From a phage, in the NCBI GenBank assembly GCA_011944185.1, contig GCA_011944185.1_3921.1: a DNA stretch of 40,116 bases, one strand, 5' to 3'. Below the pieces are notes generated by a model that did no database searches, was not told the origin of the DNA, and saw only the letters and a program-made list of their open reading frames with translations. Positions 32,439 through 34,864 of this stretch are shown one piece after another; the stretch's first letter is position 1; every line of letters starts with the position of its first letter. A program made the position numbers and the translations under genes.

Positions 32439-32768
32439 TTAATCTGCCAGCCTTAAATTAAAATTAACACCAAATTTTTCGCATACTTCCAACATATACT
32501 CAAGGGAGACATTACCAGTGAGGTGGATTATGTTGGATACGCGAGCCTGAGAGATACCACAAATTTTAGCAACTTGCTCTTGAGAAAGACCTCTGGATTT
32601 AATCTCTCTCTTAAAACGATGTGCAACGAAGTCTCTCATTTCGTCTACATCCATTGGACAAATATAACTCTCCATTTCAGCCTCTCTGTCAGCCTCCCAA
32701 TCATCTTGTGGAGCATAAGGGTCAAAAGTCTCATTCATCTTTCTTCTTCCGTTTGCGTGAAGTGTCAA
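32439..32768 (-). CDS. HTH (XRE-like) DNA-binding protein
   Basis: C-terminal helix-turn-helix LSQEQVAKICGISQARVSNIIH; true start may be the internal Met at 32738. Confidence 0.55.
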   Translation of the reverse strand: MTLHANGRRKMNETFDPYAPQDDWEADREAEMESYICPMDVDEMRDFVAHRFKREIKSRGLSQEQVAKICGISQARVSNIIHLTGNVSLEYMLEVCEKFGVNFNLRLAD

Positions 32769-32943
32769 TCAATGAATCTATGTTTGTTGCCCTAACCTTT
32801 TCACGTTCATCGTTAAGATAATCGTCAAGAACCTTTTCAATCTGTGAATCATCTTGACAGATAACTGTAAAGACTGTAAAGCCATCTGTATCGTCAATTA
32901 TCTTACCATAACCGCTTCTGGGATGTAACTTTTTAAGAGCCAT
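32731..32943 (-). CDS. hypothetical small protein (70 aa)
   Basis: ORF overlapping the start of the HTH gene. Confidence 0.35.
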   Translation of the reverse strand: MALKKLHPRSGYGKIIDDTDGFTVFTVICQDDSQIEKVLDDYLNDEREKVRATNIDSLIDTSRKRKKKDE

Positions 32944-32944
32944 A

Positions 32945-33328
32945 TCAAATACCTATGCAGCTTCTGTTTTCTAAGAAATACTCAACACCATACATAGCTT
33001 TTTGCATCAAATCTTCTTTAAACTGGATGCGATGATTGAGCATAGCCTGTACATCAATATCATCATGGTGCTTCTCTTTAATATTTGCAGATTGCAGGAA
33101 ATACTCTGCAAGAACGCGATATTGATAGTCAGTCACCTTATCAGTCATCTCTGTTAAAGACTCTTCAGAGATTGGTTTAAGTAGCTCGCCATTAGCTAGA
33201 GCAACACCTTTAACAATCTGACAAGTGTCTTCTGGAACACCTGATAAGTCCACATTTGGGAGTTCTGTTGCATTGACTGGTAAATTCATTGCCATAACCA
33301 TTGCAGCAGCTAATAAAATCTTTTTCAT
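32945..33328 (-). CDS. secreted/periplasmic protein with signal peptide (127 aa)
   Basis: N-terminal MKKILLAAAMVMAMNLPVNA signal-peptide-like segment; first gene after the regulatory region. Confidence 0.5.
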   Translation of the reverse strand: MKKILLAAAMVMAMNLPVNATELPNVDLSGVPEDTCQIVKGVALANGELLKPISEESLTEMTDKVTDYQYRVLAEYFLQSANIKEKHHDDIDVQAMLNHRIQFKEDLMQKAMYGVEYFLENRSCIGI

Positions 33329-33371
33329 AATGACCTCAAAGTTATATTAAATTTTGTATTACATTGAGTAT

Positions 33372-33417
33372 AAAAATAAGCTATAACACCTGACTTGTCA
33401 ACAGATTTTATAGCTTA
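33372..33417 (-). promoter_or_regulatory. promoter (-35 TTGACA, -10 TATTTT) overlapped by a 10-bp inverted-repeat operator-like site
   Basis: - strand TTGACA (+ coords 33396-33401), 17-nt spacer, TATTTT (33373-33378); arms taagctataa 33377-33386 and ttatagctta 33408-33417 flank the -35. Confidence 0.45.
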
Positions 33418-33760
33418 TCTGGCAGATTTTTTATAAGGCTACTGCCATCCTTCCATACCAGACCACACCATGCAAAACCAGACTTCACATCGCCTTGCCG
33501 TGCAATACATTACTTAAAAACCCTCTTAAAAGACTCTTAAGTGATTCTGGTGAGTACCTGTTGGTTTATGCTGCTCAGTATACTCACCAAATTTTCTATG
33601 TCAACAACTTTTATATAAAAGTCCTGATAGCTATATGTGTTACAAAACAGAAGATTGTGAACAAGACACCCATTGCAAAGGATGTGTTCAAAAGTTTACT
33701 TGTTATGTAAGACAATACAAAGACAACTAATGCAAACAGAATGATTATGCTTAACATAGC

Positions 33761-34864
33761 TTACTCATAATCCCTAATAACTAGCCCAACAGGAAACTGT
33801 AAAGAACCCTTACGAGTCATCTTCTGGAACTGTACCGTCAAAGGTTTCCCGATAAACTCTTCAGGATGCTCAGCAAGATACTGTTTCTTCTCATGAGTAG
33901 TCTTCCATGAGACATCTACAAAGATGTTAGGAAGAGTCTCTACAACGAACTTGCCATGACCACGCTTATCAGTCTTTACACCAGTCACTTTAAACTCTTC
34001 AGTGTGCATCTTCTTGTGCTTAATCAAGAAGTATGAACGGTGACAACACTCATAGAAGGAGTCTTCAGAGATTGAACGGTACATTGCACCTTCAAACTTA
34101 GCTTCAACCCACTTATCATGAGCTTCATCAAACTCTTCCCAAGAATTTACACGACGAGACTTAACAGGGACAACTTTACAGCCATCTCTAAAGTCATTCA
34201 ATGGTGAAGTCTCAATAATATCTCTACGCTCAGGCCACGTCTTAGTACTGTCACAGATATCATACCAGTAAAACTTAAGTAGATGACGGTCAGGATTGTC
34301 TTCATTTTTAATCATAGAGACAATATCTTCTAAGTCCCACCCATGAGCATAAATCTCACCATCAAATTCATCAACATCTTTGTGGAGCCTTAACATTGCC
34401 ATAATGTCAGGTATTAGCTCAGTAGGTATTTTATAAACAGTATTCTCACGAGAGTATGCTGTAAATACACTACCAATGCTTAAGTGTCTTGAAATTCTAC
34501 AACGGACACCATCAAGTTTTGGTTGAGCATCAGCAGGAAATATCAAATACTTTGCATGACTAACCTTTGCAGCATCATGAGCAAGCTGTACACCTACCTT
34601 CTCAGTATTCTGTGCAGACTCTTTCGTGTAAGCATAACCTTTACGGTCAACTTGCTTTTTATACTTAGCAGCAACTTCAAAGAGGGCTTGCTGTTCAGCA
34701 TTACGCTCATTCTTTTTACCGATGTTTTTAGGTTCTGCTGTATACTCTTCAAACATCATCTTGCCATTTTCTTTACCGTAGGTTGTAATAACTTTGTCAC
34801 CTACAGCAACGCATGACCAAACGTTGAAAGAGCCGTCTTTATTTTGTTTGTATAGAATTGTCAT
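33761..34864 (-). CDS. ATP-dependent DNA ligase
   Basis: adenylation motif I KLDG (QPKLDGVRC); 367 aa. Confidence 0.8.
   Translation of the reverse strand: MTILYKQNKDGSFNVWSCVAVGDKVITTYGKENGKMMFEEYTAEPKNIGKKNERNAEQQALFEVAAKYKKQVDRKGYAYTKESAQNTEKVGVQLAHDAAKVSHAKYLIFPADAQPKLDGVRCRISRHLSIGSVFTAYSRENTVYKIPTELIPDIMAMLRLHKDVDEFDGEIYAHGWDLEDIVSMIKNEDNPDRHLLKFYWYDICDSTKTWPERRDIIETSPLNDFRDGCKVVPVKSRRVNSWEEFDEAHDKWVEAKFEGAMYRSISEDSFYECCHRSYFLIKHKKMHTEEFKVTGVKTDKRGHGKFVVETLPNIFVDVSWKTTHEKKQYLAEHPEEFIGKPLTVQFQKMTRKGSLQFPVGLVIRDYE

Follow-up and report, generated by a model that had tools for sequence, protein, structure and literature searches.

The locus lies in a 40,116-nt window, the whole stretch of DNA that was analysed, which comes from a Felix O1-like phage (Felixounavirus). 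Positions 32900–34000, used as a 1.1-kb query, matched 246 phage records, with Salmonella phage vB_SenM-pSJ21 as the top match (99.7%). The window shows 40 kb of a genome of ~87 kb, so that ~47 kb lie outside it. On the minus strand, the gene order is DNA ligase (34864–33761), a 48-aa ORF, a gap, a 127-aa gene, a 70-aa gene and an HTH_3 regulator. The interval 33329–33760 had been put down as 430 bp of non-coding DNA in a preliminary description, which has to be corrected: the 48-aa ORF (33611–33757) is located inside it, and the truly non-coding part is 33329–33610, i.e., 282 bp. Along the minus strand, the following features were assigned:

33611–33757, minus strand: 48-aa ORF for a hydrophobic membrane protein (from the ORF list; PHROG 22006, E = 1e-30)
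33577–33604, minus strand: promoter P1 (11/12 consensus match; conserved)
33548–33589, no strand: 9-bp inverted repeat TGGTGAGTA / TACTCACCA, candidate operator (repeat finder, I20, 100% complementary)
33512–33542, minus strand: leader hairpin (fold −8.5 kcal/mol; the same element lies 5′ of the arrays in multi-array loci)
33455–33509, minus strand: guide region of 11 pentamers (period-5 conservation of xGY, with free NN, among relatives)
33421–33454, minus strand: predicted 3′ tail of the guide RNA, an H-type pseudoknot (identity to phage SUSP1; covariation)
33372–33420, minus strand: hairpin and U-run, candidate intrinsic terminator (stem 33418–33402/33392–33376, TTTTT 33376–33372)
33373–33401, minus strand: promoter P2 (10/12 consensus match; annotated as a promoter in phage ASO1A; conserved)
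33329–33368, minus strand: 5′ UTR of the 127-aa gene (repeat finder, I1, 80% over 20 nt; sequence)
32945–33328, minus strand: 127-aa gene with a signal-peptide-like N-terminus (first gene 3′ of P2; PHROG 4332)
32439–32738, minus strand: Cro/C1-type HTH protein (Pfam HTH_3, E = 6e-10)

The 48-aa ORF directly follows the ligase gene, is found in only some of the relatives and is outside the RNA element. At the corresponding place of the pSJ21 record (79976–80125) an ORF is annotated on the opposite strand, which is probably a mis-call. The synteny of the 127-aa gene is shared with SUSP1, and its 5′ UTR contains an imperfect 34-bp palindrome (33335–33368). As the 3′ arm of the palindrome overlaps the ribosome-binding site (GAGG), a translation-masking hairpin could form. 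For the HTH protein, the annotation of relatives gives a 99-aa form with its ATG at 32738, labelled as a transcriptional regulator. No tRNA was found in the gap, and Rfam covariance models gave no relevant match at E ≤ 10 in 32800–34000, nor a match at gathering score in 10 array-rich loci. Literature searches for a Felix O1 origin or repeats, and the PhageMaP Bas63 paper, yielded no information about this locus.

The gap was aligned with relatives fetched through the 127-aa protein, as an alignment of 10 relatives and as a collection of ~60 distinct arrays from 25 loci. Its flanks are nearly invariant and enclose a stretch of ~55 nt that is wholly different between phages, yet carries a G-pyrimidine every 5 nt; in both comparisons NN is hypervariable between related loci and GGY is conserved. 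In the window, the stretch reads TGT-AT TGC-AC GGC-AA GGC-GA TGT-GA AGT-CT GGT-TT TGC-AT GGT-GT GGT-CT GGT-AT and is the only array of its kind there. The second G and the pyrimidine are present in 11/11 units and the first G in 6/11, with T or A in the other 5/11, and the code spelled by the guide is AT AC AA GA GA CT TT AT GT CT followed by a conserved final AT. Among relatives, the distance from the ligase gene to the 127-aa gene varies from 270 to 2129 bp and accommodates one to five arrays, with the leader hairpin before and a conserved tail after each of them; the long forms also carry genes for proteins of 195 aa and 146 aa. In the Felixounavirus GenBank records examined, these arrays are unannotated, the sole exception being a bare repeat_region on one array of Escherichia phage humlepung (MN850564, 42917–42966), and a TransTermHP terminator is annotated at about the position of the leader hairpin in phage ASO1A. 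A 23-codon ORF (ATG at 33510) running across the array was rejected, since the conservation has a period of 5, not 3, and array lengths shift by 5-nt units.

An architecture of this type is known from VIPR, an RNA-guided DNA-binding system that phages use against phages. It is described, with SUSP1 as the model phage, in two 2026 preprints without peer review so far, on the available parts of which the following account is based (10.64898/2026.04.26.720920; structures in 10.64898/2026.04.26.720927). Vipr is a small RAMP-like protein of ~20 kDa that polymerises on its guide, the vrRNA, with one protomer per repeat (10.64898/2026.04.26.720920; 10.64898/2026.04.26.720927). The vipr gene usually occurs together with vap beside the vrRNAs, and each vrRNA consists of 9–16 GGY/NN (YNNGG) pentamers and an invariant 3′ pseudoknot tail; the NN pairs read double-stranded DNA with every third base, usually the codon wobble, being skipped, and binding represses transcription (10.64898/2026.04.26.720920). 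The pocket of Vipr for the Y excludes purines (10.64898/2026.04.26.720927). In the functional part of the work, the SUSP1 vrRNA was a ~100-nt RNA that co-purified with Vipr, a change of GGY to AGY abolished silencing, internal degeneracy of vrRNA repeats was frequent, natural targets were called at an NN match of at least 80% under the 1-nt skip rule, and no self-targeting was found for VIPR guides (10.64898/2026.04.26.720920). In the P. fulva (Pseudomonas) clade, guides are directed against other VIPR systems, and satellites carry vrRNAs of their own (10.64898/2026.04.26.720920).

Downstream of the array in our window, the sequence agrees at 32/32 positions with the tail of the last vrRNA of SUSP1. 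It can form a pseudoknot in which AAGG (33452–33449) pairs with CCTT (33438–33435) as S1 and GGCAG (33446–33442) with CTGCC (33425–33421) as S2. Among 14 distinct tails, which were gathered with a filter requiring at least 8/9 pairs, 9/9 pairs are kept, 8/9 of them with compensatory changes, compared to 30–41% pairing for slid partners. Taken with the pentamers, this makes it very probable that the gap holds a vrRNA gene, i.e., a guide RNA of the VIPR type, and the earlier suggestion that small RNAs could be located here was well founded. The locus is a vrRNA gene without a complete VIPR system.

Arrays of the form (GGTNN)n with free NN and 8–27 pentamers were also seen in many unrelated IMG/VR contigs (L027–L146, e.g., L036, L046, L124, L043, L117, and L146). 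They often occur several in tandem with a short conserved linker between them and, where a ribosome-binding site or start codon is visible downstream, share its strand. These arrays are probably vrRNAs of other VIPR types; some of the GGTNN matches in unrelated contigs are plain microsatellites.

SUSP1 is an Ounavirinae relative with the locus order ligase, vrRNA1, vipr, vap, three vrRNAs, 126-aa gene, so that its type II VIPR occupies the same locus between DNA ligase and the 126/127-aa gene. The two proteins encoded at the SUSP1 VIPR locus share 96.9% and 99.3% identity with, respectively, the 195-aa and 146-aa proteins of the relatives. In SUSP1, P1 and the leader precede vrRNA1, and the last vrRNA is followed by the tail, hairpin and P2 of the window; all five elements are identical or nearly so in the two phages, which also share the GGY-NN guide architecture. 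Unlike SUSP1, the window has neither vipr nor vap, and it has one guide versus the four of SUSP1. Its layout corresponds to the upstream leader of SUSP1 fused to a vrRNA of the terminal type, which fits a deletion between repeated leader hairpins, and judging from this arrangement vipr, vap and the other guides were probably removed by such an event.

P1 (TTGACA 33604–33599, N16, TATACT 33582–33577) had been overlooked in the preliminary description, as had the period-5 array that lies between P1 and P2. P1 is stronger than P2 (11/12 vs 10/12), lies 200 bp upstream of it and has a predicted start near 33570. Its sequence hardly differs among 23 IMG/VR relatives and is the same in SUSP1, in which P1 is located 5′ of vrRNA1 and vipr, and we infer that it drives the vrRNA. 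P2 was present on the minus strand as previously described (TTGACA 33401–33396, a 17-nt spacer, TATTTT 33378–33373). In ~40 relatives that were aligned or scanned, SUSP1 among them, P1 and P2 show almost no variation, and the −35 and −10 hexamers of P2 are unchanged in every one. Promoter-like matches are not enriched around the locus (5 vs 8.8 expected in 3 kb). P1, P2 and two other sites in the window have the motif AAANNTGTTGACA in common, and AAAGTTGTTGACA of P1 is also found at 35–47 and 1500–1512. In its general form AAA(G/T)(T/C)TGTTGACA, the shared motif occurs at 35–47 and 1500–1512 (plus strand) and at 33396–33408 and 33599–33611 (minus strand), with one copy reading CTTGACA. This motif probably represents the consensus upstream part of the strong host-type promoters of this phage, including those of the tRNA cluster, which comprises 25 tRNA genes on the plus strand (98–5672).

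Neither the window nor the complete genome of pSJ21 gave a match for vipr or vap in a tblastn search with the 195-aa and 146-aa proteins, which have the above identities to SUSP1; for the ~47 kb outside the window, the absence of vipr rests on pSJ21 as the closest complete relative. Besides IMG/VR locus L017, 15 GenBank records contain the same array. Both vipr and vap are missing from all 15 GenBank records carrying the guide, in which the gap from the ligase gene to the 127-aa gene is only 280–460 bp, and L017 likewise falls within this range. The vipr gene is present in 130 phage records, in 118/130 at 90% identity or more and in a single place in 129/130, and since 246 records match the region, roughly half of them carry vipr. 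Phage VpaE1 (NC_027337) has vipr, and the record VpaE1_ev78 (LR597663) is without vipr and has the orphan anti-vipr guide; the locus as a whole would have been swapped if ev78 is a derivative of VpaE1. A vipr gene sharing 98.5% identity with that of Felixounavirus is also present in the record GU169904 (Staphylococcus phage SA1), which points to Felix O1-like sequence within this Staphylococcus entry.

When read with a 1-nt skip against 1.28 Mb of sequence, the guide matches vipr codons 157–166 of SUSP1 and relatives at 20/20 bases (20/22 with the conserved last unit). The site encodes ITKEELLMVL and is read in frame, the wobble base of each codon being skipped, as for SUSP1-type vrRNAs, and the match exceeds the published threshold of at least 80% of NN. 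Other vipr alleles reach 17–19/20 with the same skip. Skips of 0 and 2 gave chance-level matches only (17/22), and a skip of 3 gave only the array genes themselves and chance matches of 17/22, while the top score of 300 shuffles of the unit order was 18/20. A search of all IMG/VR for the exact gapped pattern returned eight matches (SUSP1 and seven other contigs), all of them at vipr codon 157, and the same pattern had no match in 596 Gb of bacterial and archaeal genomes. The guide has no self-target within the window. Unlike the guides of the SUSP1 clade, 18/20 of which match a satellite (10.64898/2026.04.26.720920), the guide in the window has the vipr gene itself as its target.

Alignment of the 15 carriers showed a single unit without the second G, in phage Meda (GAT), and a pyrimidine as the third base throughout, which fits the Vipr contacts described in the available parts of the preprints. 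The first G is replaced by T or A in the same four units of every carrier; the fifth such unit of the window, unit 8 (TGC), is GGC in three carriers. Guide variants differ in units 3 (AA/AG/CG/AT), 6 (CT/AT), 7 (TT/CT), and 10. Across 12 vipr alleles the wobble positions are free, and codon positions 1–2 of the target vary only at codons 159 (AA/AG/CG), 162 (CT/AT), and 163 (TT/CT), which correspond to guide units 3, 6, and 7. In these alignments, guides and vipr alleles vary at the same codons with the same dinucleotides, and each of the two commonest guide variants matches one vipr allele class at 20/20.

The guides of two other vipr-less loci, the IMG/VR Felixounavirus contigs L002 and L008, were compared with vipr of L006, L009, L010, L016, L023, and SUSP1. 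For the L002 guide, 16/16 bases match the antisense strand of vipr codons 14–21, the wobble base being the one skipped. The L008 guide matches codons 33–42 at 17/20 (15/18 without the handle unit), a marginal match to vipr that is only suggestive. No matches were obtained in the skip-2 control for the other orphan guides, and the orphan guides of L001, L004, L011, L014, L019, L024, and L025 had no match in a small sequence set. Matches of L005_v1 were discarded as spurious, as they fall in the G-rich tail of another vrRNA. In the opposite direction, none of the guides of relatives matched a window gene at 85% or more over its full length, and controls gave one or two chance matches. The third vrRNA of the vipr-carrying locus L012 matches 17/18 bases at 33177–33202 of the window (minus strand, in the 127-aa gene) over nine consecutive units, in frame and with the skip at the wobble position. 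The whole guide reaches only 22/30, which is under the published 80% threshold, and this match could be a decayed or partial protospacer or due to chance.

We propose that the locus is a stripped-down VIPR locus with an effector-less anti-vipr guide. Host RNA polymerase would start at P1, near 33570, and transcribe the leader hairpin, the 11 GGY-NN pentamers and the 3′ pseudoknot tail in this order, until transcription stops at the hairpin and its U-run; a new round of transcription, of the 127-aa gene and the HTH operon, would begin at P2 inside this hairpin. Processing of the transcript would generate a vrRNA of ~90 nt (roughly 33509–33421). Since the phage is without a Vipr of its own, the RNA could act only with the Vipr of a co-infecting rival. 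In a mixed infection, this Vipr would load the orphan RNA and be directed onto the rival's own vipr gene, so that the VIPR system of the rival would be damped, which may affect fitness. A guide that depends on the rival's Vipr can damp, but not abolish, Vipr production. The proposal builds on what is directly visible in the sequences, namely the anatomy, the homology to SUSP1, the absence of vipr and vap, the in-frame wobble-skipping match and the polymorphism at the same codons. As an explanation of the whole locus we consider it fairly probable; for its central step, that the guide works as an anti-vipr in trans, we see the chances as evenly balanced. Somewhat more tentative still is the generalization that Felix O1-like phages without an effector retain solitary vrRNAs as RNA ‘anti-VIPRs’, with guide and target chasing each other at codons 159, 162, and 163. 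A point against an anti-vipr guide is that 5/11 units have T or A in place of the first G, while the GGY to AGY change abolished silencing in the available part of the preprint. The last SUSP1 vrRNA is without the first G in 4/10 units, and similar levels are found in arrays of vipr-carrying phages.

The main alternative to an anti-vipr guide is that the array is a non-functional leftover of a vipr-vap deletion via the leader hairpins and that only P2, the hairpin and the downstream genes still matter. The absence of vipr and vap would be expected from such a relic, as would a layout in which the upstream leader of SUSP1 is fused to its last vrRNA, and the first-G degeneracy in 5/11 units could be read as decay. 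However, the four units with a relaxed first G are the same in every carrier and look ancestral rather than the product of ongoing decay. Moreover, 15 GenBank records and L017 have retained the guide, whose second G and pyrimidine are conserved save for the one Meda unit (GAT), P1 and the tail are intact, the guide variants track the vipr alleles at the same codons, and different guides of other vipr-less phages also match vipr. We therefore regard a relic as unlikely, though it is the strongest of the competitors.

A second alternative concerns the inverted repeat at P2, which had been interpreted as the operator of a dimeric regulator, e.g., the HTH protein (32439–32738), that would bind the repeat and repress P2. 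The perfect inverted repeat is indeed there, as TAAGCTATAA (33377–33386) and TTATAGCTTA (33408–33417), and a promoter of the sigma-70 type is overlapped by it, as had been stated. The 10 perfect base pairs stand; the length given for the repeat does not, as its arms extend to 17 nt (33376–33392 and 33402–33418) with 15 Watson-Crick pairs and one G-T pair around a loop of 9 nt (33401–33393). The −35 box of P2 lies inside this loop, and its −10 box overlaps the downstream (3′) arm and the U-run. As RNA, the hairpin folds with −17.9 kcal/mol (z = −4.7; 0/200 shuffles fold as well) into an AU-rich stem of ~17–18 bp followed by UUUUU. Its arms are nearly invariant among relatives, with only three single-base differences, and identical in SUSP1. 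A scan for terminator consensus did not call the hairpin, as its 9-nt loop is outside the range of the scanner. From form and position, the hairpin and U-run are probably the intrinsic terminator of the vrRNA transcript with P2 built into it, which is a better reading than an operator.

An operator would account for a perfect 10-bp repeat that brackets the −35 box and overlaps the −10 box. The same operon encodes an HTH_3 protein three genes downstream, P1 is likewise bracketed by an inverted repeat, and an operator could coexist with a terminator. Against this, the 10-bp half-sites are 31 bp apart from centre to centre, and 17-nt arms with a U-run are typical of an RNA terminator, here sited exactly at the expected end of the vrRNA transcript. 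The repeat also travels with the vrRNA-terminal module in SUSP1, and nothing ties it to the candidate HTH protein. With up to one mismatch, the 10-mer half-site has seven matches in the 40-kb window versus 4.8 expected by chance, and the two arms are its only perfect matches. Without any reuse of the half-site in the window, a regulon-wide operator was rejected, and the sequence of the P1 repeat is unrelated. An operator at P2 is thus improbable in our view. The arms of the P1 repeat (33548–33556 and 33581–33589) bracket the −10 box and start site of P1 and are conserved in relatives and SUSP1. As only its downstream arm would be transcribed, this repeat is a better operator candidate than the one at P2, and it could mark regulation of vrRNA/vipr transcription.

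The guide could also serve a Vipr encoded by the same phage in the ~47 kb outside the window, as part of an ordinary complete VIPR system, given that only 40 kb of ~87 kb are visible. We consider this very improbable: vipr sits at this very locus in SUSP1 and the IMG/VR loci examined and has a single place in 129/130 records, the closest complete genome has none, and a resident vipr with the matching allele would be a self-target, of which none was found in the available part of the preprint. Least credible of all is a replication origin or R-loop element, for which the preliminary description had allowed and in which the G-rich non-template strand, with its GG runs every 5 nt downstream of P1, could prime replication; we found no evidence for an origin, and the xGY-NN pattern, the pseudoknot tail, the vrRNA homology and the exact vipr match are explained by a vrRNA and not by an origin. 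A TRAP-like attenuator, a CsrA or Hfq sponge and G-quadruplexes were rejected together with the R-loop origin, because the VIPR preprints and the coded vipr match explain both the pattern and its variability.

The proposed anti-vipr guide has parallels in other systems. Virus-borne mini-CRISPR arrays without cas genes, reportedly described by Medvedeva et al. in 2019, are said to target related viruses. Like these, the window would present a guide-only locus that takes its effector from elsewhere and is aimed at close relatives. Unlike mini-CRISPR arrays, which use host Cas proteins and contiguous spacers, it would employ the effector of a rival, with the effector gene as target and a gapped code. 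RNA anti-CRISPRs (Racr) are repeat mimics, as Camara-Wilpert et al. reportedly found in 2023. Here the likeness is a small phage RNA that would subvert the RNA-guided effector of a rival or host by taking the place of its guides or being loaded next to them; in contrast to Racr, which are decoys without a target, the RNA of the window carries a code for the effector gene. The array also resembles the (G/U)AG repeats for TRAP in the Bacillus trp leader, where ~11 triplets with 2-nt spacers are followed by a terminator hairpin and each triplet binds one subunit. The spacers of TRAP sites carry no information, whereas those of the window do, as indicated by the coded vipr match.

As VIPR vrRNA, the kind of element is known; the available parts of the VIPR preprints contain no description of a solitary guide that lacks an effector gene and has the effector gene of relatives as its target. 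Vipr-less vrRNA loci of this kind would escape protein-anchored searches such as that of the preprint. Our analysis explains a hypervariable “repeat region” for which the Felixounavirus records examined have no annotation, or in humlepung just a repeat_region. The matched pairs of guide and target alleles provide material for measuring the mismatch tolerance of the gapped code. If the anti-vipr guide is real, it would constitute a natural and testable case of guide hijacking and the next layer of VIPR conflict, in which a phage has lost the effector and kept a guide against the effector gene of its relatives.
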